From positions 3,519,319 through 3,583,318 of the forward strand of contig CM082594.2 in assembly GCA_040954595.2 (NCBI GenBank): DNA of 64,000 nucleotides. Direction: 5' to 3'. Under the pieces are notes generated by a model. The model had not been told where the DNA came from. It did not search any database and saw only the letters and a list, made by a program, of their open reading frames with translations. The stretch comes from Balanoglossus misakiensis (Eukaryota; Animalia; Hemichordata). The translations under genes were made by a program, and so were the position numbers. Position 1 is the first letter of the stretch. Every line of letters begins with the position of its first letter. Below, piece by piece: positions 6,562-60,400 of this stretch.

Positions 6562-6675
6562 TTAATGTTGTCATGGACTGGGTCGATTAGAATACAACTG
6601 AGCACTAGCAAAATTCGCACAAGTGACAAGGTACCTCTCATGTGCGTACTCGCCACGTTGCACTTGCAGCGAACC

Positions 6676-8195: not shown

Positions 8196-8240
8196 GGGAG
8201 GATATGCTAATTACCCAGCGGATAATTAGCATATCCTCCC
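8196..8240. repeat. Perfect 18-bp inverted repeat (hairpin)
   Basis: gggaggatatgctaatta, 9-nt spacer, taattagcatatcctccc. Confidence 0.85.
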
Positions 8241-10460: not shown

Positions 10461-10649
10461 TTCTATTTCCCATAATCCCTCATTCTCGTACACGTGCTAT
10501 CTAAAGTGCTCGCTACGCGAGCGGCCTCCGGCCGCTCGTGCTGCGCTCGCTATAAATTCTATTTTCCATAATCCCTCATTATCGTACATTATCGCTACAT
10601 TAGCGCTATGCGAGCGGCCTTCGGCCGCTCATGCTGCGCTCGCTAATAT

Positions 10650-11302
10650 AATCAATCAATCAACAAAGTTTATATAGCGCCAAAATCCAAAAAGAAATTT
10701 TGCCCAATGACGCTCATGGTTAAACCACACTGTATGCTCTTTCGAACATATGAGTTTTAAGTTTTCTTTTGAAAGTCTCCAGGTTTGTTGATTCCCTGAT
10801 ATCAAGAGGTAGTGCGTTCCACAGTTTAGGGGCAGCATAAGAGAAGGCACGGCCGCCATAGGTCTTGTTTTTGTAGGTTGTACATGTTAAGAGTTTCTTG
10901 GTGGATGAACGCAGTGTACGAGTGGGAGTGTATGGCTGCAGTAGATCACTGATGTAAGCTGGAGTCTGGTTTTGGATAACTTTGAAAGTTATCAACAAAA
11001 TTTTGTAGTCGATCCTTAGACTTACTGGTAACCAATGGAGCTGGGCAAGAACTGGAGTGATAGGCGTGAGTTTCCTAGTGCGCATGACTATTCTGGCTGA
11101 AGTATTCTGAGCTCTTTGAAGTAGGGCGATTGTGTTTTCTGGGAGACCATACAGGAGTGAGTTACAGTAGTCAAGTTTGGCAGATAGAGTTGCATGTACT
11201 AAGGTTTGGCAAGTCTCGTTGGTGATGTAACGTCGTATAGATCCAATTCGGCGGAGGAGACTGTAGATCGATTTGCAGGTGTACTTTATGTGCTGACTGA
11301 AT
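10650..11302 (-). mobile_element. 5'-truncated non-LTR retrotransposon (L2/Crack-like, CR1 group): C-terminal end of ORF2 plus 3' UTR
   Basis: Minus-strand open frame ...RRIGSIRRYITNETCQTLVHATLSAKLDYCNSLLYGLP...LQRAQNTSARIV...ITPVLAQLHWLPV...GGRAFSYAAPKLWNALP...FKRKLKTHMF is the hallmark post-RT region of L2-clade LINEs. It ends in a short (TTGA)n tail near 10650-10662. Confidence 0.9.
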
Positions 11303-11870
11303 TTAATTAAACAATAACCCCCAGGCGGGTATACGGGAAATTTGGGTACAATTCAAGACATATAGCCTGAGCCGTGGAGCGAATTGTACCCAAATCGAGT
11401 GTATACCCGACTGAGGCGGGGGTTATTGCTATTATATTATATCAACAGTTGTTTTTGTGGCAAATCAGTGTCATTTTCTTACCGAAACGGCGTCAGAAAG
11501 AGAAATTACGATCGTAAACCAACATGGCGACGATGAATGTAAACACGAGCGGCCCGGGATCGAGCATTAAACATGAAGCAGACGACAAAAAGTGACAAGA
11601 CGGGCATCGCGCGTGGCAAAGTGACAAATATTTCCACAGAGCAGTTCCAAAAAAAACGTCCGTTAATTCAACAGTATTTTTGTTTTATTTATTTGGTTTA
11701 AACACGCGCGACTGTGGTTTACCCGCACATTTTTGCTGTCGTATGCTAGTTCAGGGGCCCGTTTTAGCACTGCCCGCAGTGCTATATGACTATTTTAGCA
11801 TCACTGGATTGAGCTCTCGTCCAATCACAATGGCGGATGGTAGCATTATATAATATAATTTGGTATAATA
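11303..11870. mobile_element. Probable non-autonomous repeat with a long imperfect hairpin at its left end
   Basis: caataacccc...gggtatac...atttgggtacaattc pairs with gaattgtacccaaat...gtataccc...ggggttattg (11312-11428). It abuts the truncated LINE. Family not identifiable. Confidence 0.45.
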
Positions 11871-11938
11871 GGTTTGATGGAATGATTGATGGGAAATTAT
11901 TAACACTGTTAAATTTATTGATTGTCTATACCATTCAG

Positions 11939-12118
11939 CTCTGCCATGTTCTCCCTTACTTACTCCAACATCTGGATATGTGGACTGTACAAACGGATCC
12001 CTTTACAATAGCACATGTATATTCAGCTGTGATGAAGGATTTGAAGGAAGTGGTACTGTATCTAGAACTTGTCAATCAAACCAAGAATGGGATGCATCGG
12101 ACAACTTTACATGTGCAG
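11939..12118 (+). CDS. Sushi/CCP exon (180 nt, phase 1-1)
   Basis: ttcag|CTCTGCCATGT...ACATGTGCAG|gtgag; encodes [36 protein letters not shown]...TCQSNQEW. Confidence 0.85.
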
Positions 12119-15100
12119 GTGAGTGTTAACTTATTCATCGCTTGATAGATGCATTACGATAATACTATTAATTACATGAATGGACTGGACGATGTAAGGA
12201 TTTATATGATACATTGTAAATTTATGGCTGAATTTAACTTTTGAGGAATTGGTTTGATGGATTGAAGGATGATACATTTTTAACATTTTTATGCTTTTTT
12301 GTCTATTTACATCATTCAGCTCTGTCATGCCCAGCCTTACCTAATCCAACATCTGGTTATGTGGACTGTACAAATGGATTCCTCTACAACAGCACATGTA
12401 CATTCAGCTGTGATGCGGGATCTGAAGGAAATCACACAGTATCTATAACTTGTCAATCGAACAAAGCATGGTATCCACCCGATGACTCTTCTTGCAGAGG
12501 TGAGTGTAGTGCTAACAAAGTATGTCATTTACTGTCCAATCCAAGCACAGTTATTATGAAAAAAAATAGCGTCAAGGACACTGTGTTCCATTTGAGGATT
12601 ATGCGGAAACAGTGACACACCAGAATAAAAATTACAGGTGACATTGCAAGCAGATATGATCTTACGATAAAGAAATATGGAATGTAAAAAAAATAACAAG
12701 GAACATGCCCAATAATCTGTCATGTGTCATGGCAGTCTTACAAGTGGTGCTAGAAAAAAATGACCAAAAATTGTCTGTACAAACACATATGAGAAGCACC
12801 TTCTTTCAGTCAGCCCTGGAACAGACAGACAGACAGACACTGACCTGCCACTGGTAATTAAAAATTTAATAGCCGGTGGTCTCTGTAACAGCTGGCCTAT
12901 TAAAATTGTGTAAACATGTCTAAGTTGGGGGTAACAACTCCTTGTAAACAGTAACTTTCAAAACAACTGGACAATTGGTTTAGGAAAAGATTTGCTAACC
13001 AAAAACAAAGAAATTTACAAAAATAACTCGCTAAATGCTGAATATTTATGATATTATAAATAAATAATAATATTCTATTTATAAAGCGTCAGTATCCACA
13101 AAAATGTGATCAATGACGCTAAAAGCAAATAATACACTACAACAATTGGCTAAAAGCAGATTTAAAAAGTAAAGTTTGAACATTTGATTTAAAAACAGAT
13201 AAGTTTGATGCCTGAATTTGGTGCCTGTATCAGAATCAAATAAAAGTTGCACATACACATGTATGTGTTATAAACTTTATCCTAAATTTCAAAGCAATCA
13301 TAGAAAAACAAATTTCAAAGCAATCCAACAAGCAGTTTCAGAGAAAATATTTGTTCAAAAGTGGCAAAAACACAAATATGCAAATATCCCCAAAATTGTA
13401 CAATATCTTACTTCAATCACTACAAGGAACATGCTGCCAAAGTTCAATGCAATATGACAAGCGGTTTCAGAGAAAACAATTTTTGACAAAAATTGCTAAA
13501 GTTTCCCCGATAACACATTTATGAAAATATCACATTTTTATAACATATTACTTAAGTTACCCCTACGAACATGCCTACCAAATTGCAAAGCAATCTGGCA
13601 TGCGGTTTTAAAGAAAAAAATATAGCTGCAAGCAGCAATAGCGGGCCCAAGCCAACATAGCAAATAGCAACATAGCAATAAGCATATCTGCTCTGGATGC
13701 CAAGATATGGAAAAGTAGGTCAAAGGTCACCTGAGGTCATGCAAAATTTGGGCAAGAAATTTTGACCCTATACTGGTCCATGTTCAACAAAAACCAAACC
13801 TATAGCCCTATTGGTTAGCCTGGAATTAGGTATGCACATAATTAATGAGACGTGCATGTGTCATAGGTGACCCCCAATTTTGGCTTTTCAATTTTAGTCC
13901 CAACCCTCCAAACGCCAAGTCTGTACCTGCTCTGGATGCCAAGATATGGTAAAGTAGGTCAAAGGTCACCTGAGGTCATGCAAAATTTGGGCAAGAAATT
14001 TTGACCCTATACTGGTCCATGTTCAACAAAAACCAAACCTATAGCCCTATTGGTTAGCCTGGAATTAGGTATGCACATAATTAATGAGACATGCAGGTGT
14101 CACAGGTGACCCCCAATTTTGGCTTTTCAATTTTAGTCCCAACCCTCCGAACGCCAAGTCTGTACCTGCTCTGGATGCCAAGATATGGTAAAGTAGGTCA
14201 AAGGTCACCTGAGGTCATGCAAAATTTGGGCAAGAAATTTTGACCCTATACTGGTCCATGTTCAACAAAAACCAAACCTATAGCCCTATTGGTTAGCCTG
14301 GAATTAGGTATGCACATAATTAATGAGACATGCAGGTGTCACAGGTGACCCCCAATTTTGGCTTTTCAATTTTAGTCCCAACCCTCCGAACGCCAAGTCT
14401 GTACCTGCTCTGGATGCCAAGATATGGTAAAGTAGGTCAAAGGTCACCTGAGGTCATGCAAAATTTGGGCAAGAAATTTTGACCCTATACTGGTCCATGT
14501 TCAACAAAAACCAAACCTATAGCCCTATTGGTTAGCCTGGAATTAGGTATGCACATAATTAATGAGACATGCAGGTGTCACAGGTGACCCCAATTTTGGC
14601 TTTTCAATTTTAGTCCCAACCCTCCGAACGCCAAGTCTGTACCTGCTCTGGATGCCAAGATATGGTAAAGTAGGTCAAAGGTCACCTGAGGTCATGCAAA
14701 ATTTGGGCAAGAAATTTTGACCCTATACTGGTCCATGTTCAACAAAAACCAAACCTATAGCCCTATTGGTTAGCCTGGAATTAGGTATGCACATAATTAA
14801 TGAGACATGCAGGTGTCACAGGTGACCCCCAATTTTGGCTTTTCAATTTTAGTCCCAACCCTCCGAACGCCAAGTCTGTACCTGCTCCGGATGCCAAGAT
14901 ATGGTAAAGTAGGTCAAAGGTCACCTGAGGTCATGCAAAATTTGGGCAAGAAATTTTGACCCTATACTGGTCCATGTCCTACAAGAATGAAACCTCTAGC
15001 CCTATTAGTTAGCCCGGAATTAGGTATGCACATAATTAATATGCTAAGCAGGTGTTACAGGTGAGCCCAAAAATTTGCCTTTTATTTTGGCCCCATTGTG

Positions 15101-18100
15101 CTCACTGACCAATAGACAGTCACTGTACAGAACTATTGCACAGACCAGAATTCCACAATAAGACGTGGACATAGCTTAACCATAGAGGTATAAGTAAAGG
15201 TATAAATTTAATAAAAAGACTAAAAAATTCATAAAAAAAAAAAAAAACATCCATGATATTAACTTAACACTTACAGGTCGATGTGAGGTTGACATAAGGT
15301 ACATGCATACCAATTTTTAAAGCAATCTGACCAGTAGTTGTTGACTTTCAGAGTTTTGATAAATTTCATATTTTATAGGCTAATTTGCATATTTTTGGGC
15401 CTGGCAACTTCGTTTGAACAAACTCCCATCTACAGCCCTGCCTGCATCTGCACACCAAATATCAAGGTGATACGTGCAGCGGTTTTCAAGTTTTTGATGT
15501 TGACGGACATACAGACATACATACATCCATCCATCCATACATACATACATACATACATACATACATACATACATACATACATACATACATACAGACGCAA
15601 CCGATCCCATAAGGTCCTAACCAATGGGACCTAAACATGATCTTAAAGGGAAGTTACCTTACAATTGACTCAATGTAGTGATATCATATGTATAGTATTT
15701 GAATGCCAGTTTCCCTTGATTGCTTTCAATTTTCATGTCGGGTTTTGTGTATATTTATTTACATGGTCTATCGTTGTTACATGTCATTTGAATCACCAAA
15801 CTTAGTTCAATCGTCCTAAAATTATGCACATACTGCCAATGCTTCTCATAAAAAAGTGATCATAACAACATAATTTATAGCAGATTAATAACACACTTAG
15901 ATATAGGGATACTGAGTTAATCTGGCTGTGCAAGAATATTCCATTGTAGGATTGCCTCTTACTTGCTAACCTCGATTGTCTGGGATAAAGGAGAATCGCA
16001 TTGATGTATACATTTGTTGTATTACTTTAACAGATCCATGTGATAGTGATCAATGTCTAAATGGTGGCACCTGCAGAAACGAGTACTACCTCGCTTACTA
16101 CTGCATCTGTCCCCCAGGCTGGACTGGAACACGCTGTGAACATGGTAAGCTACGTGGCACATTTTGGGTTTTCTAGCTCCACCCCCAAGTACTGTATACA
16201 GAGCATGCCCAAGTCTGAATGACAGGACACCAAACAAACCCACGGAAAGAGTACAAAAGAAAGAGTTCGCAGTCGACAAACAAATATTGCCATTGTAATG
16301 TTAACATATCTTAATGCATACCTGAAGACCTGTAGGCACAATTTCTAAGTTATCATACAAATAGGTGTGACAACAGAATACAGTATCAGCATCACTATAA
16401 CATTTTTTTTCATAATTGTCTCAAGGAACCTGCCTTGGCGTTCAGATTTTTTGACTAACCAATCTCAAAAGGAAAGCATGTTTTCTCTATAAAAATTATA
16501 ATTACAACTAAGAATGAACAAGTTAAATTGTACATGAAGACAAACTAGTAATTTACCTTGATTGCACAATATCTCTATGGAAAGGCTAACCAAAGTCAAT
16601 ATTTTATCTGTACACTTAAGCACTGATTTTGATTTCCTATGTATTAAGGATACCGCTTTCGCGCTGACATTCTAAATGTGCAATGAGCCATGATTTATGA
16701 TAATAAACGGCATATTGTGTACATATTGGGATGGGAATCTGAAATTTAGATTTTAATTCTGGTTCTAGAACATAAATGTAACAATGGCGACACAGAGAAC
16801 CTGACTGCTGTTCCTGTTATTAAATTTGCATATGTAATATATGCGAAAGAGATTGAAAAAATACACTCAAATCAAGTTATTAACTTTCTCGAATATATCC
16901 ATTGTGTTGATGCCTTAATATATTTTTTTCTCTAACCAACTACATTACCACCAACTACAATAAAAACAACAGAAGAGACAACTATTGCACCACATACTAT
17001 AGTGCCAATACCACGACGGCCAACTACCGTACGTACACCAATTATATTAGAAACAACAGAAGAACCAACTACATTACCACCAACTACAATAAAAACAACA
17101 GAACGGCCAACAACATTACCACCACCTACAATAAAAACAACAGAAGAGACAACTATATCACCACATACTATAGTGCCAATACCACGACGGCCAACTACCG
17201 TACGTACACCAATTATATTAGAAACAACAGAAGAACCAACTCCATTACCACCAACTACAATAAAAACAAGAGAAGAACCAACTACTTTACCACCTACTGC
17301 AGCGAAAACAAGAGATAAGCCTACTACATTAATACCAACTATAACAGAAACAGGTATCGATATATTATTAAACACATAAGTTTTGGCCAAAAAGTTGTAA
17401 ACGTAATAACCCAATTCACAATAAAACGAAAACATTAAAGTTGGTCAGGTGAAGGAAAATGGCGTCTTTTAGGGTGGAGCCTGGCCGTAGCTTATGTCGC
17501 AAACTAAGATTCTTCAAACATTTCTTTGTAACAACCTTTCTGAAAACCTTAAAGTTAGTCTGAACATTCCTTCTGAAAATGGTGTGGTAGGTCGGGTTCA
17601 AATCAAATAAAAACAATATGATTTGTAAACCGTATTAACTCAACAACTGTTCTGACAACAGCAGTTACTACGACACCACAGCCTCCAACAAATTCACTGA
17701 CAACAGAAGGGGATAAAACACAAGCTCTTCCAACAACTTTGCTGACAACAGAAGGGACAACAACACAAGCTCTTCCAACAACTGTGCCTACAACTGAAGG
17801 GGCGACAACACAACCTATTCCAACAACTGTCCTGACAACAGAAGGTGATACGACACAACAGCCTCCAACAACTTTACTTACAATTGAAGGCAAAATGATC
17901 TGTGCTATATTTCTACTATAACAGCACATTTAGCAGGCTTTGATGAATGTGGTCTATTTATACAATTTAGTCTTGAAATGTCCTGCCTTACTTTCTCCAA
18001 CATATGAAAATCTGGAATGTACAAATTGATTCCTCAAATGCAAAGCCCTAATTACTTCTTGTAACTCACTTTTACGTTTCTTCTTCGAATTATTATTCTG

Positions 18101-21100
18101 CAAACACAGAACCACCCGTGTTTCTAGACTGTCCCGATAACATCACCATATATATCGACCCTGGACAAACTGAGGCCAACGTTACATGGACGGAACCAAC
18201 TGTAACTGATACCAGCGGACAAACACCTTTGGTTAACCAGACACACTCACCTGGGGCAATATTTTATATTGGAATTACCTGCGTGAGATATTATTTCATA
18301 GATAGAGCAGGCAACCTGGTTGAATGCAGATTTTACGTTATTATCATCGGTAGGATTTATAACAATCTACTCCCATGCCGATAATTTGCTACTGACATTG
18401 TTTACATTGGGTATTTATATTTTGGTTTGATTGATTGATTCATAATATTTCACCTGTGTGATTTAACTAAATTTCAAAACTATTATGTTTATCCAATTAG
18501 TCAAGATTGAAATAACAACAGCTTCTTCAATAACTGAAGGCGTAACAACTGTTGTAACAACACCAGCTGACACAACCGTTGGAGCTACCACTGTACCGGC
18601 AAGGACGGAAATAACGACGGCTGCCCTAACATCCGAAGGCGTAACAACTGTTAAAACTACATCAGCTGACACAACTTCTGAAGTTGCAACTACAACTCAA
18701 TCGGCAACAACTACACAAGATATACCAACTACAGCGGTCGTAGGAACAACAACTAAAGGTAAATATGACTGTTTGTTTTTGGAAGGTTCTTTTATATTAC
18801 AGATGCCATGAATAAGATTCTCATTAAAGTGGTAGTGACAGGAATCGATATGTTGTTTCAACGTTTCGAACTTGTCCAGACACCCATCCACGGAATGAAA
18901 CAGAAAAGTTTACACGCACAGGAAGGGAAAACTGATGAATGATGGCATTCATTTGCTTTAACATATTTTTTTTCCAGTTTTGACATGTCCAGACCTATCT
19001 GACCCAATAGACGGAAATGTTACCTGTACCGATGGTTTCTATTACAACAGCACATGTACATTCAGCTGTGATGAGGGATTTGTAGGAAATGGTACAATAT
19101 CTAGAACTTGTCAATCAAACCAAGAATGGGGTGCATCCGATAGTTTTGCTTGTATAGGTGAGTGTAGTGCTAGCAAAGAATGCCATTTACTATCCAATCA
19201 AAGCACAGCCATTATGAAAAAAGTTTATCTTAATGAAAAATTACCTTTCAATGTTGTGATATCATATGTATAGTATTTTACATATTTGATGAAAACGTAT
19301 ACCTTATCTATCTTTGGAAGTTATGAAACATTCTAACAATCGATATTTTGGCATTTTGATAATACTTGTGCCCAGCTCACGAACGATACCATCATTTGCT
19401 TTTAGTCAATAACAGACATTGTCAACAGAGAAAGAGAGGTATTTATTATCATGCCCGTACAGGATGCAGAATGATTTGTGTCATAAGGTGAATGAGTATA
19501 TTTTAGTGATCATAACAACCTAATTTACAGCAGATTATTATCATTGTTAGATACAGGGTTACTGAGTAAATCTGGCCGAGGAAAATGAATATTCCACTGT
19601 CGCATTGCATTTTACATGCCAATATCGATTATTAGGGATAAAGGAGAATCGCATTGATGTATACATGTTTGTTACTTTAACAGATCCATGTGAACCTAAT
19701 CGATGTCTAAATGGTGGCACCTGCGAATACATATTCGATGATATAAATCGCGTCATTGATTACTATTGCATCTGTCCCAGCGGCTGCACTGGAAAACATT
19801 GTGAATGTGGTAAGCTACGTGGCACAGGTTGAGTTTTCTAGCACACCCCCCCCCCCACCCAACAGTATACAAAGCAATAACATGTCGACGTCTGAATGAC
19901 AGGACACCCACCAAATCAATAGAAGGAATATCAACATGTTTTCTTATTCGTCGTTGTTTCACAGACTCACGATTGGATTGGGGGAGATAGAAATTGATTT
20001 ATACATTGTTTACTGTTACTTTTGAATAATAGGTTTGACAGATTGATTGATTGATTGATTGATTGATTGACGGGACATTATTAACACTTCTAAATTTATT
20101 TTACTTGCCTATACCATACAGGTCTGCCGTGTCCTCCACCCCTTGTCCCAATATTTGGAAATGTGAACTGTACAAACGGATTCCTTTACAATAGCACATG
20201 TACATTCAGCTGTGATGAAGGATTTGAAGGAAGTGGTACTTTATCTAGAACTTGTCAATCAAACCAAGAATGGGATGCATCCGATAACTTTACATGTTCA
20301 GGTGAGCCATTATTATCAAACGGAAATATATGTTAACTTATAATTCGCTTGATAGATGCATTATGAAAATAAAAGCTTATTTCATTAAGAGGTTGGAGGA
20401 GATAGGAATTTATTGATACATGGAAAATGTATAGGTTTATTAACTTTACCTGGAATCGGTCATTCAATTCACTGGAGACACATAGACAGACAAAATATCA
20501 ATTTAAGGACTAGGCAATTTTCTCGGCCTGAGGTCGTTGGATTTGTGGGGAACACCCGGTAATGCACGATATGGTTAGGATCAATGGGTTCTTGGCTGTG
20601 AGCGAGTACAGATGTTATAACTAACTAGACCACAATTACTACAAGCAAACATCTTTGCACAGTTTAGTACACAAAATAATGGCCAAAACGCACAAGCGGC
20701 TGTCGACAGTGCATGCAATCATAAACCAATGTTAAAACAGAAGCTCCCTCAAAATTGAATTCAACAGTTCACATCCCTACAAGTGTACTTGGACATTGCA
20801 CATTCATTAATGGCATTAAAGAGATGCATCGACAGGGTAATACGCAAAAAAGTACACAAACACTATATCATGGGTGGTACATGGGTGATATATACTGCAT
20901 GGGACAACGATGGAAACGAGGCTGAATGTAAATTTGTCGTTAAAGTCCAAGGTAATTTTGCCCCTGTGAATGAACTTACAATGTCTCTTAAGTGTCTGAA
21001 GTTGCAAATCTGTAACCACTGTGGGTTTTACACACATGTCTCATTGAGAGTGGATTTGTAACATATTGTAACATATGGAGGGAAAGGCAAAAAAGCCAAT

Positions 21101-24100
21101 TGAATTTCACTTGTATGAATTTTTCATTATGCCATGCTCATTTTGCAGATATCGAACCACCCGAGTTTACAAATTGTCCTGAAAATATTACTACAACAAC
21201 TGATCCTGGACTAAGTGTCGCCAATGTCTCCTGGACCGAACCTAGTGTACCTGATTATTCAGGACAAATGCCAACAGTTTAAATAGATGTTAGCAGGGCA
21301 CCTAATATTTTTTTGAAAATAATCATTTTGCAGATATCGAACTACCCGATTTTACAAATTGTCCTGACAATATTACTACCACAACGGATCCCGGACTAAG
21401 TGTCGCCAATGTCTCCTGGACGGAACCTAGTGTATCTGACAACTCAGGACAAATGCCAACAGTTACACAAACACATTCCCCTGGAAGTCATTTTACCATT
21501 GGCAGTACATGGGTGACATATACTGCAGAGGACATGGCTGGAAATCAAGCTGAATGCAGATTTGTCGTTAACGTCCAAGGTAATTTTGACTGTATGAATA
21601 AATTTCATTGTGCATAAAGCATCTCAAGTTGCGTATATGTATCCAGTCTGGTCTGTACACACATTTACCACAATTGTGCTGCTCGTAGAGGGGAAAAGCA
21701 CTACGAATTTCCTTTGTATTAACTTTCACTGTGCACTTATTTTGTTACAGACATGGAACCGCCCGTGCTTACGTTTTGTCCCGGTAACATTACTGCAACA
21801 ACTGATCCTGGACTGAGTACAGCCACTGTCTTCTGGACAGAACCAAATGTAACTGATAACAGCGGACAAACGCGTATGGTTAACCAGACACACTTATCTG
21901 GGGAACAGTTTTCCATTGAAATTACCTGCGTGATATATATTTTCATAGATGATGCAGGCAACCTGGTTGTATGCCATTTTTACATTATTACCATAGGTAG
22001 GATTTATTACAAGCTACTCTTCTTAATTCGGCCACCTGTGTAACCTCCCATGCTGATAATTTCATCCCGACATTGTCTACATTGCACATGTATATCACGC
22101 TTTTATTAAATCATGCTTTTTTACCTGTGTTGTTTGAATAAAGTCCAAAACTGCTATAATTTAGCCAAGATTGGTGTAAGAGTGCCATCAATTTCAACTT
22201 GTTGAGTTTGGAATCATAGTTTAGTGAACTCTTTCGGTGACCACTTCAGTTTTACTTTTGGAAATTACATTTATTTGAATGAATATACAAATCTTTACGA
22301 TTTTTAATGTGAGAAAACAATAGTGACATGGAAGAAGAGGACAAGAAAGCCAACTGAATATCACGTGCATAAATTTTCACTGTGTAATAATTAAGTTGCT
22401 GTCACACCCGAGTTTACGTTCTGTTACCCAACGTTACTACAATCACGATAAATTTAGCCTGTATAAATGTTTCATTATGCCATTTTTATGTTGCAGATAT
22501 TGAACCACCTGAATTTACTTTCTGTCCCGACAACATTACAACAACAACTGATCCTGGACTAAGTGTCGCCAATGTCTCCTGGACAGAACCTGTTGTATCT
22601 GACAATTCAGGGCAAACACCAACAGTTACACAAACACATTCCTCTGGAAGTCATTTTACCACGGAAAGTACATGGGTGACATATACTGCAGAGGACATGG
22701 CTGGAAATCAAGCTGAATGCAGATTTGTCGTAAACGTCCAAGGTGAGTTTGACCGTGAGAAAGAACTTAAAATCTGTTTGAAGTATCTGAAATTCCATAG
22801 CTGTAACTCATTTTATGAATGTTTTATAATGGAGTGTGCATCGGTGACTTATAATGAGAATGAGGAAGAGGTCGACAAAATCGAACTATATTTTCTTCAT
22901 TTAATTTTAACTGTGGAATAATTGTATTTCAGACACGGAACCACCTGAGTTTACCTTCTGTCCCGACAACATAACTACAACAACTGATCCTGGACTCAGT
23001 GTCGCCAATGTCTCCTGGACGGAACCTGTTGTATCTGACAATTCAGGACAAATGTCTTACATTTCCCAAACACACTTGCCTGGTTCTCATTTTGCCATTG
23101 GTAGTACATGGGTGACATATACTGCAGAGGACATTGCTGGAAATCAAGCTGAATGCAGATTTGTCGTAAACGTCCAAGGTGAGTTTGACCGTGAGAAAGA
23201 ACTTAAAATCTGTTTGAAGTATCTGAAATTCCATAGCTGTAACTCATTTTATGAATGTTTTACAATGGAGTGTGCATCACTGACTTATATTGAGAATGAG
23301 GAAGAGGTCAACAAAATCAAATGATTTTTTCTTCATTTAATTTTCCCTGTGGAATAATTATATTTCAGACATGGAACCACCCGAATTTACCATCTGTCCC
23401 GACAACATTACTTCAACAACTGAACCTGGACTAAGTGTCGCCAATATCTCTTGGACGGAACCTGTTGTATCTGACAATTCAGGACAAATGTCTTACATTT
23501 CCCAAACACACTGGCCTGGTTCTCATTTTGCCATTGGTAGTACATGGGTGACATATACAGCATGGGACAATGATGGAAATGAGGCTGAATGTAGATTTGC
23601 CGTTAACGTTCAAGGTAATTTTGCCACTGTAAATGAACTTATAATGACACATAAGTATCTAAACTTGCATATATGTAACCACTGTGGGTTTTACAGATAT
23701 TACTGATTGATAGTGGATTTGTTACATATAGTGACGTACTACGGAGGAAGGGAAAAAACCAAATGAACTTCCCTTGCATTAATTTGCACTGTGTAATGAT
23801 TATGTTGTAGACATGGAACCACCAGAGTTTACCTTTTGTCCCGACAACATTACTATAACAACTGATCCCGGACTAAGTGTCGCCAATGTCTCCTGGACGG
23901 AACCTGTTGTATCCGACAATTCAGGACAAATGCCAACAGTTACACAAACACATTCACCTGGAAGTCATTTTACTATGGGTAGTACATCGGTAACATATAC
24001 TGCAGAGGACATGGCTGGAAATCAAGCTGAATGTGGATTTGTAATTAACGTCGAAGGTGAGTTTGACCGTGAGCAAGACCTTACAATGTGTCTGAAGTTT

Positions 24101-36100: not shown

Positions 36101-39100
36101 AACGGCTGCTTCAATAACTGAAGGCGAAACAACTGTTGAAACAACAGCTGCTGACACAACTTCTTAAGTTACAACTACATACCACTGAATCTCGCTGTTA
36201 TGTTTCTATTTCAAATTGTTATTCTACATATTATTAACCACATGTTTTTCTAGACTGTCCTGGTGACAGCGTCATATTTATCAACCCGGGACTAACTGTG
36301 GTCATCGTTCCGTGGACGGAATCAGCTTTAAAAGGTGGCGACGGACTATTACTTTCATGGACACACTCTCCTGGATCACAGTTTCCACTTGGAATTACCT
36401 ACGTGACATATACTTTTATATTTGAAGTAGGCATCGTGGTTGAATGCAGATTTTACATTATTGTCATAGGTAGGTTTATAACGAGCTACTCTTCTTAATT
36501 CGTCAACGTCTGTAACCCCCCAAGCTTATAATTAGACAGTGACATTGTTTATGATTGACATCTCATTATTGTGGTTTAATTGATACATATCATATCACCA
36601 GTGTGACTTGAATAAAGTCCAAAACTATTATGATTATTCATTTTGTCAAGATTGAAAAAACAAACGGCTGCTTCAATAACTGAGGGCGTAACAACTGTTG
36701 TAGCAACAGTACCTTACACGACATCTGACGTTACAACTACCACTTAATCTTGCTTTTATGTTTTATTTTAATTATTATTTTGCATTCACTTAACCATCTG
36801 TGTTTCTAGACTGTCCAGCTGACATCATCATAATTATCAACCCGGGACTAACTGTGGTCATCGTTACGTGGACGGAATCAGCTTTAAAAGGTGGCGACGG
36901 ACTATTACTTTCATGGACACACTCACCTGGATCACAGTTTCCACTTGGAATTACCTACGTGACATATACTTTTATATTTGAAGTAGGCATCGTGGTTGAA
37001 TGCAGATTTTACATTATTGTCATAGGTAGGTTTACAACGAGCTACTCTTCTTAATTCATCAACGTGTGTAACCCCCCAAGCTTATAATTTGATAGTGACA
37101 TTGTTTATAATTGACATCTCATTATTGTGGTTTAATTGATACATATCATATCACCTGTGTGACTTGAATTAAGTCCAAAACTATTATGATTATCCATTTT
37201 GTCAAGATTGAAAAAACAAACGGCTGCTTCAATAACTGAGGGCGTAACAACTGTTGTAGCAACAGTACCTTACACGACATCAGACGTTACAACTAACACT
37301 TAATCTTGCTTTTATGTTTTATTTTAATCATTATTTTGCATTCACTGAACCATCTGTGTTTCTAGACTGTCCAGCTGACATCATCATAATTATCAAATCG
37401 GGACTAACTGTTGTTATCGTCACGTGGACGGAACCAGTTGTTAAAGATGAGAACGGAACCTCAGCTATAGCTAGCCAGTCACACTCACCAGGGTCACAAT
37501 TTCCAATTGGAATTACCACCGTGACATATACTTTCAAATTTGAAGCAGGCATCATGCCTGAATGCAGATTTTCCATTATTGTCATAGGTAGGATTTATTT
37601 AAGCTACTCTTCTTAATTTGTCCACCTGTGTAACTTCCCAAGCTGATAATTTGATAGAAACATTGTTTTTGTTTGACATCTCATTATTGTGGTTTAATTG
37701 ATACATTGCATATCACCTGTGTGACTTGAATAAAGTCCAAAACTATTATGATTATCCATTTAGTCAAGATTGAAATAACAATAGCAACTTCTATAACTGA
37801 AGGTTTCACAACTGTTGAAACAACAGCAGCTGACATAATATCTAAAGTTACAACTACCACTTAATCTCGCTTTAATGTTTCTATTTCTAATTTTTATTCC
37901 ACATACACTGAACCACCTGTGTTTCCAGACTGTCCTGATAATATCACCATATATATTGACCCGGGACAAACTGAGGCCAACGTTACGTGGGCGGAACCAA
38001 ATGTAACAGCTTTGGTTAACCAGACACACTCATCTGGGTCACAGTTTCCAATTGGAATTACCAACGTGACATATACATTCATATTTGAAGCAGGCATCGT
38101 GGCTGAATGCAGATTTTACATTACTGTCATAGGTAAGATTTATTACGAGCTACTCATTATGCGAGACAAAACTCCGGTACATGTATTTTCAGACAATTTC
38201 ATATACACGTACTTTAAGAACACCAAATACCTTGCAGAGACAAACAATGACAAGATGTTATAACTAAATCATACAAAACGATGTAAACGGACCGACACAC
38301 GTTTAAATCCATTTCATTTGTCATTAAATCATTCAAAAAGACATGACTCTCCTCTGAGCCCTACAAAATTTAATAACTCCCACATTTTTATATGTATCAC
38401 CCTCTTATTGTTAAACATTTCATTAAAAGAGTAATATTCTTCATACAGTTCTTTAGAACAACCTTTCTGAAAACTCAAAATGAGTCAACATTCCTGCCTT
38501 CTGAAATTGGTGTGTGGTAGGTCTGGGTTTGAATCCGATGTAAAATAACATGATTTGTAAACATTACTAACTCAACCTCCAACAACTGTCCTGACAAGAG
38601 CAGGTGCTTCGACACCACAGGCTCTAACCACTGAACTCAAACCACTGTAAAAACAACTCAGCAACCTTCTTCTCTTGTCTCATCTGCCTACCACAGCGAA
38701 TTCAACTACTGAATCAACAACTCAATCTCCAACAACTGTCTTGACAACAGAAAGGGCGACGACACAACCTCTTCCAACAACTGTGCTGACAACAGAGGGG
38801 GCGACAACACAACCTCCTTCAACAACTGTGCTGACAACAGAAGGGGCAACAACACAACTTCTTCCAACAACTGTGCTGACAACAGAAGGGTATACAACAC
38901 AACCTCCTCCAACAACTGTGATGACAACAGAAGGGGCAACAACACCACAGCCTCCAACAACTGTGCTGACAACAGAAAGGGCGACAACACAACCTCTTCC
39001 AACAACTGTTCTGACAACAGTAGGCGAACCACCTGTGTTTCTAGAATGTCCTGATAACATCACCATATACATCGACCCGGGACAAACTGAGGCCAACGTT

Positions 39101-42100
39101 ACGTGGATGGAACCAACTGTAAATGATACCAGCGGACAAACACCTTTGGTTAACCAGACACACTCACCTGGGTCAAACTTTTCCATTGGAATTACCTCTG
39201 TGACATATACTTTTATATTTGAAGATGGCATCGTGGTTGAATGCAGATTTTACATTATTGTCATAGGTAGGATTTATAACGAGCTACTCTTCTTAATTCG
39301 TCAACGTGTGTAACCTCCCAAGCTGATAATTTGATAGTGACATTGTTTATATTTGACATCTCATCATTGTGGTTTAATTGATTCATAACGTTTCACCTGT
39401 GTGATTGGAATAAAGTCCAAAACTATTATGATTATCCATTTAGTCAAGATTAAAAAACAACGGCTGCTTCAATAACTGAAGGCGTAACAACTGTTGAAAC
39501 AACAGCTGCTGACACAACTTCTTAAGTTACAACTACATACCACTGAATCTCGCTGTTATGTTTCTATTTCAAATTGTTATTCTACATATTATTAACCACA
39601 TGTTTTTCTAGACTGTCCTGGTGACAGCGTCATATTTATCAACCCGGGACTAACTGTGGTCATCGTTACGTGGACGGAATCAGCTTTAAAAGGTGGCGAC
39701 GGACTATTACTTTCATGGACACACTCTCCTGGATCACAGTTTCCACTTGGAATTACCTACGTGACATATACTTTTATATTTGAAGTAGGCATCGTGGTTG
39801 AATGCAGATTTTACATTGTTGTCATAGGTAGGTTTACAACGAGCTACTCTTCTTAATTCATCAACCTGTGTAACCCCCAAGCTTATAATTTGATAGTGAC
39901 ATTGTTTATAATTGACATCTCATTATTGTGGTTTAATTGATACATAACATATCACCTGTGTGACTTGAATTAAGTCCAAAACTATTATGATTATCCATTT
40001 TGTCAAGATTGAAAAAACAAACGGCTGCTTCAATAACTGAGGGCGTAAAGCAACAGTACCTTACACGACATCTGACGTTACAACTACCACTTAATCTTGC
40101 TTTTATGTTTTATTTTAATCATTATTTTGCATTCACTGAACCATCTGTGTTTCTAGACTGTCCAGCTGACATCATCATAATTATCAAATCGGGACTAACT
40201 GTTGTTATCGTCACGTGGATGGAACCAGTTGTTAAAGATGAGAACGGAACCTCAGCTATAGCTAGCCAGTCACACTCACCAGGGTCACAATTTCCAATTG
40301 GAATTACCACCGTGACATATACTTTCAAATTTGAAGCAGGCATCATGCCTGAATGCAGATTTTCCATTATTGTCATAGGTAGGATTTATTTAAGCTACTC
40401 TTCTTAATTTGTTCACCTGTGTAACTTCCCAAGCTGATAATTTGATAGAAACATTGTTTTTGTTTGACATCTCATTATTGTGTTTTCATTGATTCATAAC
40501 ATTTCACCTGTGTGATTTGAATAAAGTCCAAACTGTTATGATTATCCATTTAGTCAAGATTGAAATAACAATAGCAACTTCTATAACTGAAGGTTTCACA
40601 ACTGTTGAAACAACAGCAGCTGACATAATATCTAAAGTTACAACTACCACTTAATCTCGCTTTAATGTTTCTATTTCTAATTTTTATTCCACATACACTG
40701 AACCACCTGTGTTTCCAGACTGTCCTGATAATATCACCATATATATTGACCCGGGACAAACTGAGGCCAACGTTACGTGGGCGGAACCAAATGTAACAGC
40801 TTTGGTTAACCAGACACACTCATCTGGGTCACAGTTTCCAATTGGAATTACCAACGTGACATATACATTCATATTTGAAGCAGGCATCGTGGCTGAATGC
40901 AGATTTTACATAACTGTCATAGGTAAGATTTATTACGAGCTACTCATTATGCGAGACAAAACTCCGGTACATGTATTTTCAGACAATTTCATACACACGT
41001 ACTTTTAGAACACCCAATACCTTGCAGAGACAAACAATGACAAGATGTTATAACTAAATCATACAAAACGATGTAAACGGACCGTCACACGTTTAAATCC
41101 ATTTCATTTGTCATTAAATCATTCAAAATGACATGACTCTCCTCTGAGCCCTACACAATTTAATAACTCCCACATTTTTATATGTATCACCCTCTTATTG
41201 TAGAACATTTCATTAAAAGAGTAATATTCTTCATACAGTTCTTTACAACAACCTTTCTGAAAACTCAAAATGAGTCAACATTCCTGCCTTCTGAAATTGG
41301 TGTGTGGTAGGTCTGGGTTTGAATCCAATGTAAAATAACATGATTTGTAAACATTACTAACTCAACCTCCAACAACTGTCCTGACAAGAGCAGGTGCTTC
41401 GACACCACAGGCTCTAACCACTGAACTCAAACCACTGCAAAGACAACAAAGCAACCTTCTTCTCTTGTCTCATCTGCCTACCACAGCGAATTCAACTACT
41501 GAATCAACAACTCAATCTCCATCAAGTGTGCTGACAACAGAAGGGGCAACAACGGACCCTCTTGCAACAACTGTTCTGACAACACGAAGGGTTACGACAA
41601 CACAGCCTCCAACAACTGTTCTGACAACAGAAGGTGATATGACAACACAGCCTCCAACAACTGTTCTGACAAGAGAAGGTGATATGACACCACAGCCTCC
41701 AACAACTGTTCTGACAACAGGAGGGGTTACGACGACTCAGCCTCCAACATCTGTTCTGACAACAGAAGGTGATATGTTACCACAGCTTCCAACAACTTTA
41801 CTGACAAATGAAGGCAAAATGAACTGTACAAATGATTTCTACTACAACATTGTGGGCACATTCAGCTGTGAAACAGGCATTGATGAATATTGTCTATTTA
41901 TACGATATAGTTCTGACATGTCCTGTCTTACTTACTCCAAATCTAAAAATCTAAAATGTACAAACGGATTCCTCAAATGAAAAGCTCTAACTTACTTCTT
42001 GCATCTTGCTTATAATGTTTCTATTTCAAATTATTATTCTGTAGACACTGAACCACCTGTGTTTCTAGACTGTCCAGCTGACATCATCATATATATCGAC

Positions 42101-45100
42101 CCGGGACAAACTGAGGCCAACGTTACTTGGACGGAACCAAATGTAACTGATAACAACGGACAAACAGCTTTGTTTAACCAGACACACTCACCTGGGTCAC
42201 AGTTTCCAATTGGAATTACCAACGTGACATATACTTTTATATTTGAAGCAGGCATCATGGCTGAATGCAGATTTTACATTGCTGTCATAGGTAGGATTTA
42301 TTTCTAGCTACTCTTTCTTAATTTGTCCACCTATGTAACTTCCCATACTTATAAATTGATATTGACATTGCTTATATTTTGCATCTTATTATTGTGGTTT
42401 GATTGATTCACAATATTTCACCTGTGTGCTTTGCAAAAAGTCTAAAATTATTATGATTATCCATTTCTTGAAATAACAAAGACTGCTTCAATAACTAAAG
42501 GTGTAACAACTGTTGAAACAACAGCAGCTGACACAACATCTGAAGTTGCAACTACCACTTAATCTCACTTTCTTGTTTCCATTTCAAATTATTTTTCTGC
42601 ATACACTGAACCACGCGTGTTTCTAGACTGTCCAGGTAACATCTTCGTATATATCGACTCGGGTCAAACTCAGGTCTCCGTTACGTGGACGGAACCATTT
42701 GTACCTGATGACAGCGGACTATCACCTTCAGTTACCCGGACACACTCTCCTGGGTCACTGTTTCCCATTGGAATTACCTGCGTGAGATATACTTTCACAT
42801 TTGAAGCAGGCATTGTGGTTGAATGCATATTTTACATTATTGTCATAGGTAGGATTTATTACAATCTTCTGTTCTTTATTTGTCAAATTTTGTAACCTCC
42901 CATGATGATAATATAATACTGACATTGTTTATATGAGACATTAATGTTATGGTTTGATTGATTAACAATATTTCACCTGTGTGATTTGAATAAAGTCTAC
43001 ACCTATTATGATTATCCATTTAATCGAGATACAAATAACAAAGGCTGCTTTAATAACTAAAGGTGTAAGAACTGTTGAAACAACAGCAGCTGACACAACA
43101 TTTTGAGTTACAGCTATATATAGCACTTAATCTCGCTTTAATGTTTCTTTTTCAAATTATTATCTTGCATTCACTGAACCACCCGTGTTTCTAGACTGTC
43201 CAGAGGACATCATCATGTATATTGACCCGGGACAAACTGAGGCCAACGTTACTTGGACGGAACCAAATGTAACTGATACCAGCGGACAAACAGCTTTGGT
43301 TAACCAGACACACTCACCTGGGTCAAACTTTTCCATTGGAATTACCTGCGTGAGATACACTTTCATATTTGAAGCAGGCATCGTGGTTGAATGCAGATTT
43401 TGCATTACTGTCATAGGTAGGATGTATTACAAGCTACTCTTCTTTATTTGTCAGACTATGTAACCTGCGATGCTGATTTTATACTGACATTGTGTATATA
43501 AAGCATTCATTTTATGGTTTGATTGATTCATAATATTTCACCTGACCAATTTCACTTTGACCAATCCACTGTAAAAAGTCAAGGATTAATAATAATAATT
43601 TATTGCGTTTCAAGACCTCGGGTCCAAATGCATGGAGAACATCCCGTTCTCAAATAAAGTGAACCATCGCACAAATACAGATTGAGTGCTAATTTCAGAA
43701 TTACAGAGAAAGTTAAACAATGTAATACACTCTATGCAGGACAGGTGGCTGTTCTCACAGCCATAGCTTTATAGACATAGTGGCAAATGTTCAGTAGTAC
43801 CAGTGGATCTGTGGAGCTCATAAGCCTTTTGGATTTGTCGTAGTTTGGGTCAAGGAAAGCAAAAAAGTCAAGGAATGCCTTAAGGAGTGCAAGTGAAATT
43901 GTCAAACATCGGCAGTCGGAAATTGCTGGAAAAGAAAAACATTTTCAAGAAAAAGTGTTCCACAACACTGTACCCTTTATTTACCATCATTTCAATAATT
44001 TCAATGAGTGTCAACTAAAATATACTTCTGCATTTAGCTAAATGGTAGATAAACTTTTCTGTCGATTAACGGCCCTGGGCGGTTGATTAGCTCTATATGT
44101 ACACCATACAATGTAGCCATTTTCTGTATAACGGCCCTAGGCGAGTTCTCAGAAAAATCCGGTAAGTGGCATATTGTGTACATTGGGACGTCTATCTGAA
44201 ATTTAGTTTTTACTTCTGGTTATGGAACATATATGTAACAATGACAACAGAGAATCCCTGACTACCGTATAGTACCATCTACAATAATAACATAAAAAAC
44301 TACTTCTGTACCACCTACTACAGTGAAAACAACAGTTCAGCCAACTACATTACAAGCAAGTACACTAATAATATCAACAGAAGAACCAACTACTGTAGCA
44401 GATATAACAGAGAAAACAACAGAAGAACCAACTGCTGTACCACCTTCTACAGAGAAAACAACAGAAGAACCAACTACTGTACCACCATCTACAATAAAAA
44501 CAACAGAAAAACCAACTACATTACCACCAACTACAGTGCAAACAACAGAAAAACCAACTACGGTACCATCTACTACAGTGAAAACAACAGAAAAACCAAC
44601 TACATTACCACCAACTACAGTGAAAACAACAGAAGAACCAACTACTGTACCACCTACTACAGTAAAAACAACAAAACGGCAAACTACATTACCACCAATT
44701 ACAGTGCAAACAACAGAAGAACCAACTACGGTACCACCAACTACAGTGAAAACAACAGAAGAACCAACTACGGTACCACCAACTACAGTGAAAACAACAG
44801 AAGAATCAACTACGGTACCACCAACTACAATAAAAACAACAGAAGAACCAACTACTGTACCACCTACTACAGTAAAAACAACAAAACGGCAAACTACATT
44901 ACCACCAATTACAATAAAAACAACAGAAGAACCAACTACTGTACCACCTACTACAGTAAAAACAACAAAACGGCCAACTACATTACCACCAACTACAATA
45001 AAAACAACAGGAGAACCAACTACTGTACCACCTACTACAGTAAAAACAACAAAACGGCCAACTACATTACCACCAACTACAATAAAAACAACAGGAGAAC

Positions 45101-48100
45101 CAACTACTGTACCACCTACTACAGTAAAAACAACAAAACGGCCAACTACATTACCACCGACTACAATAAAAACAACCGTCAGGCCATCAACTCTACCACC
45201 AACAACCATGAAAACAACTAGAAAACCCACTACTGTTCTGCCTACTATAACAGTTTCAACCATGTCAACATTAACAACAACACCGGCAGCGGAAGATGAA
45301 TGTCCACCATTAGGCATTGGTAAGCATCTGATAACATATGCTTGAGTTTACAAATGTTATGTATTACAAACCAGTACTTTCTGAACTAGTACACAAAAAT
45401 GTATCCTGGAAACTAGTAACAGTTTTCCTTGGACTGAGACAGAGGGAAGGTAAATGAACTAACACGTTACCTCGAAAAGGATTAACTTTTTTCTATAACC
45501 AAAGAATTTCGTTAATCATAAAACTTTGTAAACACTTTCACTATTTGTTTCATCATGGCACTTCATATTGAAAAACGAGTGTTCAAGGGGACACCGCCGG
45601 TCACTTTCACATAATATTGGAATTTTAGTTGATTGCTTAATATGTTCTCATTGAACTAAATCCAGTGGCAGTTTCTGGCATCTCAACTAACTTCCTGTTT
45701 ATCGACGTAACACATGAAAGATACTATCAGTTAATTTTGGTCCATAAAAAAACATTGTCGACACCGAAATAGTGGTATTTTCTATCATGCCCATATAGGA
45801 TGTAAAATTTGTGTCATAAGGTGAATGAGTATATATCAGTGATCATAACATAATTTATAGCAGATTAATATCACTGTTAGATACAGGGCTACTGAGTAAA
45901 TCTGGCCGAGGAAAATGAATTATAGGATTGTCCGTTACATGCTAACCTCGATTATCCTGATAAAGGAGAATCGCATCGATGTATATTTGTTGTGTTACTT
46001 TAATAGATGCATGTGACAGCGATCCATGTGAAAATGGTGGTACCTGTCAAAACACAGCCTCAGGCATCTCTTACCGTTGCATCTGTCCTAAAGGCTGGGT
46101 TGGAAGAAACTGTCAACTTGGTAAGCTACGTGGCACATGTTGAGTTTTCTAACTCCCCTCCATGACAGTATTATAAAGGAGCAGTAATATAATATGTCCT
46201 TATAACAGGACAACCAACATATCCACAGAAAGAAATAAGGCAGAAACAGTTTACAATCGACAAACACATATTGCGATATCTATCTTAGACAAATTATGAT
46301 CACATTTTGTAAACATTATCAGATAGTAGCAAAATATTGATTTTTATGTTGTATTCTGATATATCAACTTACGTTATTTACTCGTTGTGCAAGCGAGCGT
46401 AAATGTCCTGTTTTTGATTTTCAGTTTACGCATAATGTCATGACTGGGTTAGTGTTCTGGAATATGACTGATGCCTGCTGTGAATTTGTCAGTCAGAAAT
46501 AACCTCCTCTTTGGCATGTATCGCCATATTTATTTTAGTGAAAAATTGGTGTTCAGATGATCCTCAAGTTTGTCGAAATGGAGGTACTTGTAGAAGTGAT
46601 AGAGATGATTTCAGATGTGACTGTTTGCCTGGATACAGTGGGACTACCTGTAGAGATTGTAAGTAGAACGTTAGTTTTGCACCGAGTACATTTCAAAATG
46701 AATTATGCGACAAGCTTTCAGGATGAAACTAGCAGTGAGTTTTTGCTTACACACCAGCTCTAAGACATCATCATTTCCGATCACTGAAATATTCTACCAT
46801 AGTATGTAAAACGTGCGAAGTTGTATCTCTACTAACCATGGTCTTGTGTCCTATACAGATAAACCAGAGTGTAGTCTAAGGTGTCTTTTCGGATCCTGTG
46901 AAATCAAGGATGGCAAAACACCGACCTGTCATTGTTATAGCGGTTTTCAGAAATTAATCGTGAACAACATTGCTCTCGACATTTGTTTAGGTAAGTTGGT
47001 ATTTATCAATGTGTACATTGTTTTGTCCGTGTGGATCTATTCAACGCCTGTGTACAGCCCTTTTCAAGTGAAAATACTAACGGGTGGTCAAGCTCTAATG
47101 TTCAAGTCAAATAATCGGTTTGCCACAAAATCCCATCTTTAGGCTTGCATTTTGCATTATATGGTTCTACTGATATCTCAAATACCGTTTTTCACAGTAT
47201 GGCCATAATGCACCTTGTAACTTTTGCATAAACAGCAAAACATACAGACTTGATGGTGCAGGCGTCGTATTGGTTACATAGTAAATTTTAGCTTACCATT
47301 TTCGTTTGATAAATCTAAAAATGTCGCCTTCACAGTAAAATATGTTGTAGGCCATTTTTGTGAAAACCAAAAACACCACCACTATCACCACCAAGTCAAT
47401 ACTTATCTCCTCAATATTAAACGAAGTCTTTGTATCCTTTTCAGCCATGAATGAATGTGCTACAGGCCTGAATAACTGTTCACAAAAATGTGTCAGTCTA
47501 CCTGGGTTCCACCTTTGCTTCTGTGATGCTGGCTATGAGTTAGAGGAGGACGGCATAACCTGTACTGGTAAGTATTTCCGATTCCAGAGCTTTCTCAGGG
47601 CAAAACAAGACTCATTCAGTTTTACAATTATAGATGTGACTTATGATAAAGAGCATTCACGTGATTCTTTAAACGGATTATAGTATTAAATTCTTATTGT
47701 TACTTTTTCCATGTGGTAGTGTTCAACTTTTGCAAATCATTCCCACACGTTAAATAAGCCCATGTTGAGTGGTGGGTACGATTTGTCAGGTCGCCGGAAA
47801 AATATATCTTTCCTAAACATTCCTGACCTTTGACCTTACATATGATTAAACACTACGCCGTATGGGACATTTTTGCATAAACAGAGGTATATCTCTGAAT
47901 GTTTATTTCAAAACAGAGATTGATGAGTGTGAATCAAATCCATGTGTACACGGAGTGTGTAAAGATCTGCTGAATTCATACGAATGTGACTGTTGCCCAG
48001 GGTATACTGGTGACACGTGTGATACAGGTAAGTTATATGGCTAAACCTTAAATATTGTCATTGTTCAAAATGCAAGTCGCAGCATGAATTTTTGCCACGT

Positions 48101-60369: not shown

Positions 60370-60400
<31 letters not shown>

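Follow-up and report, generated by a model that had tools for sequence, protein, structure and literature searches.

We consider a stretch of 64,000 nucleotides (nt) from the hemichordate Balanoglossus misakiensis (GenBank assembly GCA_040954595.2, contig CM082594.2, positions 3,519,319 to 3,583,318 of the forward strand), called the window below, with positions counted from its first letter. The window probably carries one MUC4-like mucin gene, whose N-terminal stalk of tandem single-domain exons likely grows and decays by unequal crossing-over. Within this stalk, twelve exons for HYR domains seem, from their sequence, to have outlived the loss of their splice acceptors and appear to be diversifying. 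The locus shows a birth-and-death cycle of such a stalk: some arrays are fresh, uniform and held by purifying selection, others are reduced to remnants, and one block apparently survived acceptor loss and diversified.

Evidence for a single gene

The signal exons, the arrays and the core would, on the simplest reading, form one gene, because signal-like first exons lie only upstream of the arrays, the EGF exons inside the arrays are copies of the EGF exon at 46007, and relatives of the core carry HYR or Sushi domains ahead of it. The same three observations support the picture, put forward in an earlier note on this DNA, of a constant core with an amplified stalk. A hydropathy scan of segments running from an ATG to a phase-1 donor gives two signal-like exons in 420-11930 (at 2641 and 7003, Table 1) and none in 12500-16030 or 43416-51229. 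The two copies are identical at 66 of 70 nt, and the second joins the first Sushi exon (11939) in frame. That the signal exon is a dispersed repeat is ruled out by its contig depth of 67-100, close to that of single-copy DNA, against thousands in the true repeats nearby. The EGF exons at 16034 and 19684 are, introns included, 75-77% copies of the one at 46007, which links the arrays with the part of the locus that holds the core. A third, partial copy of the signal-exon region stands at 2179-2326; it has no ATG, and its donor reads GAAAGC.

The MUC4-like features found are NIDO, VWD with the GDPH motif, C8-3_MUC4, a signal-like first exon and an upstream variable-number tandem repeat (VNTR) rich in proline, threonine and serine (PTS). 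The 14 core exons join without a stop, also through a GC donor at 53390-53392, and the joined frame contains the GDPH motif. Pfam identifies NIDO in two exons (E 1e-10 and 6e-6), VWD (E 1e-7) and C8-3_MUC4 (E 5e-13), and it gives no AMOP match in the core exon pieces or in 19 relatives including the P. flava protein. The NIDO-AMOP-VWD-EGF core described earlier is thus recovered by Pfam for NIDO, VWD and EGF, with C8-3_MUC4 added, but not for AMOP; the AMOP-like segment aligns continuously with proteins named "mucin-4-like" (32% over 752 amino acids in a salamander, 67% over 36 in P. flava). The core had also been called single-copy, and indeed no self-match occurs inside 51.2-59.2 kb; the self-matches beyond 45.4 kb involve only EGF exons and their introns. 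Two very aromatic stretches were noticed in the core, including its AMOP-like segment (52403-52636 and 53761-53958), the first of which, compared by eye, resembles an insertion of ~17 residues relative to the P. flava relative; such stretches could possibly be adhesive or ligand-binding loops.

Relatives of the core

A search with the largest core exon gives XP_070549842 of P. flava (54% identity; HYR4-EGF-NIDO) and, at E<=0.001, 166 representatives. The 150 best of these were taken, and 151 proteins in all were scanned for HYR and Sushi. A tree of 19 rows places the window core beside three proteins from hemichordates (support 99/99), which fits an acorn worm as the likely source. The MUC4-like proteins of hemichordates (XP_070549842 and XP_070537209, "mucin-4-like" in P. 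flava; XP_077993148 in Glandiceps) share with the window the order of the core, GDPH, C8-3_MUC4, the runs of EGF and the upstream PTS, and they are 44-48% identical to the window core.

In 6 of the 151 proteins, window-derived profiles detect 2-6 HYR before the core, and in one they detect HYR after it; three of these six HYR-bearing relatives have no Pfam HYR match at 1e-5. Anneissia XP_033114121 has two HYR before the core, and Patiria XP_038062365 has six by the window profile, three of which pass Pfam at 1e-5. Among 18 long relatives Pfam finds Sushi in one, the crinoid "mucin-like protein" Anneissia XP_033095614, where it stands before the core in what are two modules by eye; the Sushi profile built from the window, which is too narrow, matches none of the 151 proteins. 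HYR and Sushi occur together in none of the relatives scanned, and the other long relatives carry PTS, CUB, LDLa or somatomedin B ahead of the core. GDPH is present in all seven long relatives checked and a C-terminal hydrophobic span in six of the seven; by analogy, the product of the window gene is likely membrane-anchored.

A swappable N-terminus on a MUC4 core is, in the proteins compared, a habit of the family; cnidarian MUC4-like proteins likewise have varied N-terminal domains, namely CUB, ZP and FN3 (PMC9080433). The earlier note knew of no MUC4-type core preceded by 16 Sushi and about 32 HYR domains. HYR (2-6 copies) or Sushi before the core already occurs in acorn worm and echinoderm models; what is unmatched among the 151 proteins is the scale of the architecture, since no relative has more than six HYR, against 32 HYR and 16 Sushi here, carried by young repeats of exon plus intron. 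A literature search of titles and abstracts, with most subscription papers and supplements outside its scope, finds no description of the architecture; it is not mentioned in the available parts of PMC4948705 and PMC10381214, and a coral paper (PMC7853314) names domains, in its available part, only in legends. What is new here is the scale and the youth of the arrays.

Exon arrays

Between 11.9 and 45.3 kb, a listing of AG..GT exons of phase 1-1, complemented by tblastn with the domains of the window, gives 16 intact Sushi exons, 32 full HYR coding units and two EGF exons, so that the earlier count of 16 Sushi and about 32 HYR was right; two HYR half copies and two Sushi remnants stand beside them. 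Pfam confirms the Sushi, HYR and EGF exons that were sampled. Each of the 16 Sushi exons is 180 nt long, bounded by AG..GT and of phase 1-1. All 53 delimited array exons have lengths divisible by three and phase 1-1, but a strong acceptor is found in just 35 of them; they do not amount to a clean array of the ~55 symmetric phase-1 exons that the earlier note described. The predicted chain to the end of the window has 4,223 amino acids with these 35 exons, and the protein of over 6,000 amino acids once proposed is reached (6,075) only when all 18 weak exons are added.

Introns were amplified along with exons, as had been claimed, with periods of 341-362 and 436-443 bp and with 3.3-kb units that are 92-95% identical; the introns have 136 nt or more. 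In protein, the Sushi copies are ~95% alike on average (90-100% identical in the 12-copy array) and the HYR-a copies ~83% (70-99%), and most of these domains have 2-3 N-glycan sequons each. PTS stretches are found at 16.9, 17.6, 18.5, 35.3, 38.6, 41.4 and 44.3 kb. Contig bin depths across the arrays range from 6 to several hundred and, coming from contigs of one sample, permit no copy count. A joint of 25136 to 27842 in one contig is not counted as a copy variant, since it has 26 letters on its short side and joins look-alike units. Within the long intron after Sushi exon 2, a 239-bp unit is repeated 5.8 times at 97% identity (13688-15083).

Table 1. Features of the predicted gene along the window.
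Feature	Position	Strand	Remarks
Predicted first exon, copy 1	2641-2710	+	ATG, 23-residue signal-peptide-like segment, phase-1 GTAAGC donor
Predicted first exon, copy 2	7003-7072	+	Inside a local 0.7-kb duplication
Sushi exons 1-2	11939-12118, 12320-12499	+	180 nt, phase 1-1
EGF exon	16034-16144	+	With introns, 75% copy of the EGF exon at 46007
PTS stretch	16934-17353	+	Tract ends without AG; next in-frame AG (16971-72) weak; GT donor intact
PTS stretch	17620-18065	+	No GT donor; runs into a Sushi remnant with a stop
HYR-b exon	18110-18349	+	240 nt; old acceptor AA, new in-frame AG 6 nt on
PTS exon	18501-18758	+	258 nt, phase 1-1
Sushi, EGF and Sushi exons (18978-20301)	18978-19157, 19684-19809, 20122-20301	+	
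Two broken HYR halves	20861-20950, 21149-21279	+	3' half only; 5' half, then a stop
HYR-a array	21334-27958	+	15 exons of 246 nt, acceptors all strong, dN/dS 0.40
Sushi array	28319-32353	+	12 exons of 180 nt, period 341-362 bp
HYR-b block	32906-43416	+	16 copies, nested 567-bp and 3.3-kb repeats
HYR-b canonical copies	32906, 42045	+	
HYR-b fused to a PTS stretch	35384-35908, 38697-39266	+	Intervening intron lost, one exon
AT copies (12)	33497, 34053, 34616, 36254, 36810, 37366, 37929, 39612, 40157, 40719, 42627, 43195	+	AT at old acceptor, in-frame AG 24 nt on
PTS stretch	41487-41950	+	No GT donor; fused to a Sushi remnant
Main PTS VNTR	44324-45319	+	42-bp unit x22, 331 codons, 60% P/T/S; acceptor uncertain
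Ten EGF exons	46007-51052	+	111-138 nt, phase 1-1
Core, 14 mixed-phase exons	51229-59169	+	NIDO, AMOP-like segment, VWD with GDPH, C8-3_MUC4, Ig/cadherin-like segment, EGF
Nine further EGF exons (one double)	59729-63659	+	Gene continues beyond the window

Splice acceptors of the HYR exons

At the position where a 246-nt HYR exon should have its acceptor, AG is present in 20 of the 33 HYR starts, AT in 12 and AA in one, and the statement that HYR exons are 246 nt long and every exon phase 1-1 is not confirmed in that form. The AT copies all lie within the HYR-b block (12 of 12, 33.4-43.4 kb), and in each of them the first AG past the pyrimidine tract is in frame and 24 nt on. Because the skipped 24-nt lead contains a stop in four of the twelve, AT is disfavoured as a genuine non-canonical acceptor. 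An assembly error was considered as well and set aside: three of the 12 sites are covered by contigs from two runs, both made from a single sample that may be the one behind the assembly, and no difference is listed there.

A weight matrix trained on 33 single-copy acceptors of the window (mean 2.5, standard deviation 3.3) places the acceptors of all 16 Sushi, all 15 HYR-a, two EGF and two HYR-b exons above 98% of decoy AGs, and these are the 35 strong exons. Two PTS acceptors scored with the same matrix are weak (16973, -7.7; 44324, -2.4). The twelve AT copies are likely still spliced in, through the AG 24 nt on, as shortened domains. AlphaFold, given alignments of 16-17 window copies, predicts a beta-sandwich both for the full HYR-b domain (predicted local distance difference test, pLDDT, 88) and for a shortened hydrophobic copy (pLDDT 94); a search for solved HYR relatives gives none, either by fold (E<=0.001) or by sequence (E below 0.6). 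Automatic gene prediction would probably go wrong at the twelve shifted exons; mucin genes of giant size and high repeat content usually come out fragmented, both in assemblies and in gene models.

Two lineages of HYR-b (33497-33712 and 34053-34274, with their copies) have a mean hydropathy of 0.6-1.0, against ~0.1 in the canonical copies, and 0-1 N-glycan sequons against 3-5. The hydropathy spread in HYR-b is not significant against neutral expectation (P 0.06), and a directed drift to hydrophobicity, for which this spread is the sole argument, is not retained.

Selection on the copies

Codon models were applied to the distinct copies (15 of 16 Sushi, 15 of 15 HYR-a, 15 of 17 HYR-b and 11 of 12 AT copies). 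The ratio of nonsynonymous to synonymous change (dN/dS) is 0.52 for Sushi, 0.41 for HYR-a, 1.08 for HYR-b and 1.19 for the AT copies, and a ratio of 1 is rejected for Sushi (twice the log-likelihood difference, 2dL, 9.8) and HYR-a (33.5) but not for HYR-b (0.2). The exon distance is below that of the homologous introns in both of the former (0.046 vs 0.118 in Sushi, 0.124 vs 0.258 in HYR-a). The Sushi and HYR-a arrays are coding and under purifying selection.

The HYR-b block appears not to be simply decaying, because its frames are open, the conserved positions of the HYR fold are kept, and a class of its sites is fast. None of the 12 AT bodies contains a stop (neutral simulation, P 0.005), nor does any HYR-b body (P 0.0005), and the two exon deletions among the HYR-b copies, of 6 and 18 nt, are both multiples of three. 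Invariant amino-acid columns number 24 in HYR-b where 11.7 are expected, and 32 in the AT copies where 20.5 are expected (P 0.003); they coincide with the positions conserved in 14 HYR domains of the relatives (Fisher P 0.018 for HYR-b and 0.003 for AT), and silent change at these columns of the block (0.156) is near that of the intron (0.165). The site models, from which the recombinant copy 36810 was left out, were run in a custom implementation whose one-ratio likelihoods equal those of IQ-TREE for Sushi and HYR-a. Model M2a is preferred over M1a for HYR-b (2dL 10.0, p 0.007) and for the AT copies (10.5, p 0.005), with about half of the codons in a class at dN/dS 2.2-2.3, and the same comparison gives no class above 1 in HYR-a (p 1) or Sushi (p 0.11).

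Proposed mechanism and alternatives

In the mechanism that we propose, one of the two signal exons (2641 or 7003) would splice to the Sushi exon at 11939 and on through the arrays to the core. Since each module is of phase 1-1, units can be added or lost without a change of frame, which makes copy turnover cheap, and unequal crossing-over could add or remove such frame-neutral units. The Sushi and HYR-a arrays would form an extended rod, uniform and glycosylated, which would raise the tip of the molecule clear of the glycocalyx or make a mucus coat thicker. The core may be cut at GDPH, as MUC4 is (PMC8660890); the stalk could then be shed from a subunit that stays in the membrane. For the HYR-b block we suppose that AG changed to AT early on and that splicing moved to the next AG, 24 nt downstream and in the same frame, leaving domains that are 8 residues short and presumably still fold. 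The weak HYR-b exons would probably be included part of the time, so that the stalk would incidentally vary in length; their non-core positions may change faster than neutral, as for a surface that meets microbes, sperm or substrate. A role in mucus or glycocalyx is suggested by the family and by hemichordate biology (PMC4729200, PMC13554239): acorn worms feed and burrow with mucus and have expanded their VWD glycoprotein genes (PMC4729200).

Several observations weigh against this account. The fallback AGs of the twelve AT copies are weak (weight-matrix scores -3.1 to +0.3), and the AlphaFold model of the shortened domain depends on an alignment that includes intact copies. Any membrane anchor would lie past the end of the window. 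The HYR-b exon and intron distances are 0.179 and 0.165 (six copies with homologous introns), a result that decay gives as well. The site test covers 73 codons, uses custom code and relies on a tree open to distortion by gene conversion; moreover, silent distance in HYR-b is higher in the 5' than in the 3' half (0.195 vs 0.130), so that part of the site-class signal is regional. With one HYR-a exon as query, two of 36 candidates match, neither of them named as animal, and with one Sushi exon none of 18 does (proteins of at most 2000 amino acids; weak searches); these searches found no animal relative of either exon, hence no orthologous array to compare. At the main PTS exon, the nearest upstream AG (44271-72) scores -3.5 and leads to an in-frame TAA after six codons, and the 5' end of the exon is degenerate, with a high-copy repeat just upstream (43550-44130).

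The twelve HYR exons may also be more than survivors. As a built-in variable cassette, made facultative by the old acceptor mutation and its weak rescue and then amplified and driven apart by positive selection, with altered surface residues, fewer glycans and higher hydrophobicity, they could be included stochastically and yield a cell- or individual-specific mix of binding domains on a constant stalk, that is, a Dscam-like output without docking machinery. We offer this as speculation, with low confidence; the locus is a test case for whether acceptors that are weak and rescued in this way can make alternative cassettes of tandem exons.

The opposite proposal is that the HYR-b/PTS block (33-45 kb) is dead, a set of skipped pseudo-exons whose open frames and fold residues predate the loss, so that the working protein would run signal-Sushi-HYR-a-Sushi-EGF-core over ~4,200+ residues. 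The 12 lost acceptors, the PTS remnants, the Sushi remnants and the dN/dS of 1.08-1.19 do all fall in this block, its fallback acceptors are weak, and some of its copies no longer have any N-glycan sequon and have become hydrophobic. However, AT is common to five lineages with diverged flanks and bodies (pairwise dN about 0.1-0.3), no body has a stop or a frameshift, and stops did arise in the skipped lead. A dead block requires either a late spread of AT by conversion or the recent death of all five lineages, and we judge it unlikely.

Equally doubtful is programmed diversity, in which the arrays would be cassettes for combinatorial or mutually exclusive splicing, or of polymorphic copy number, that set many recognition isoforms on a constant core. 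The symmetry of all 53 delimited array exons would suit it, as would the 18 exons whose weak or shifted acceptors invite skipping, the fast site class in HYR-b, the two candidate first exons, and the precedent of the sponge aggregation factors, putative allorecognition genes with 154 of 155 introns in phase 1 (PMC5400394). Yet the 25 longest of 117 inverted repeats are AT-rich pairs of 71-83% complementarity without a docking-site pattern. Introns of 136 nt or more, which all the array introns are, are too long for steric exclusion. The Sushi and HYR-a copies, 90-100% and 70-99% identical, have uniformly strong acceptors, and at the identity of the Sushi copies choosing among them alters length, not specificity. 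Sushi and EGF modules are normally of class 1-1, and phase symmetry, being usual in modules of this kind, is by itself no evidence of alternative splicing. Symmetric exons are over-represented in genomes generally (PMC3632108).

Least probable is that there are two products, the arrays ending at the stop behind the 44271-72 acceptor as a secreted Sushi/HYR polymer and the core transcript skipping the PTS exon or starting elsewhere: that AG is indeed the first before the PTS frame, with TAA six codons on, and the high-copy repeat of 43.55-44.1 kb is there, but 43.4-51.2 kb contains no signal-like first exon, the acceptor at 44271-72 is no better than the in-frame one at 44324, the PTS frame stays open for 331 codons up to an intact phase-1 donor, and relatives join HYR or PTS to the core.

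Comparison with known systems

On the favoured reading of one mucin gene with a turning-over stalk, the expansion of the MUC4-like stalk is real, extreme and mechanistically familiar. SVEP1/polydom and SRPX are likewise extracellular proteins that combine Sushi, HYR and EGF modules, with a small fixed number of HYR, with VWA or pentraxin modules, without a MUC4 core and with ancient, divergent repeats. Unlike theirs, the repeats here are young, near-identical and placed before a MUC4-type core, and the open frames and exon sets between 11.9 and 64 kb include no VWA or pentraxin exon. Arthropod Dscam1 has tandem duplicated single-domain exons in arrays that docking-selector pairing makes mutually exclusive. 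The window gene shares with it the tandem single-domain exons in a surface protein; docking-selector pairing is not seen in the 25 longest inverted repeats, and the symmetric phase here permits any number of exons.

The sea-urchin EBR1_5 has a transmembrane segment, SEA and seven HYR, with positive selection on three of the seven HYR repeats (PMC5521101). Like it, the window gene is predicted to encode a membrane protein with a tandem run of HYR domains, of which only some show positive selection, the diversifying signal being seen in the HYR-b block only (p 0.005-0.007, on small data). Unlike here, where selection is between copies in one gene, it is there between species, and the available part of that source does not describe a NIDO-AMOP-VWD core for EBR1_5. 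The locus may serve as a test case for a repeated recruitment of HYR repeats as fast-evolving recognition surfaces in ambulacrarians.

In the aggregation factors AqAFA-E of Amphimedon nearly all introns are of phase 1 and exon-plus-intron repeats are ~85% identical, with exon shuffling proposed and alternative splicing considered possible (PMC5400394). These genes resemble ours in being large and modular, with phase-1 introns and internal exon-plus-intron repeats, and they differ in their Calx-beta, Wreath and VWA domains and in the allelic polymorphism shown for them; modular genes that are phase 1 throughout are already known. Abalone VERL is a further case of domain repeat expansion, with concerted evolution (PMC8830517).

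Neighbouring features

Head to head with the mucin gene, on the minus strand, lies an exon that starts with MSKKPF (178-363); Pfam gives it no match, and we take it to resemble the N-terminus of HSPBAP1 (JmjC). Inside the predicted first intron, also on the minus strand, a frame of 210 codons (10723-11352) lies in high-depth repeat DNA; it too has no Pfam match, and it presumably resembles the end of a reverse transcriptase of the long interspersed nuclear element (LINE) type.

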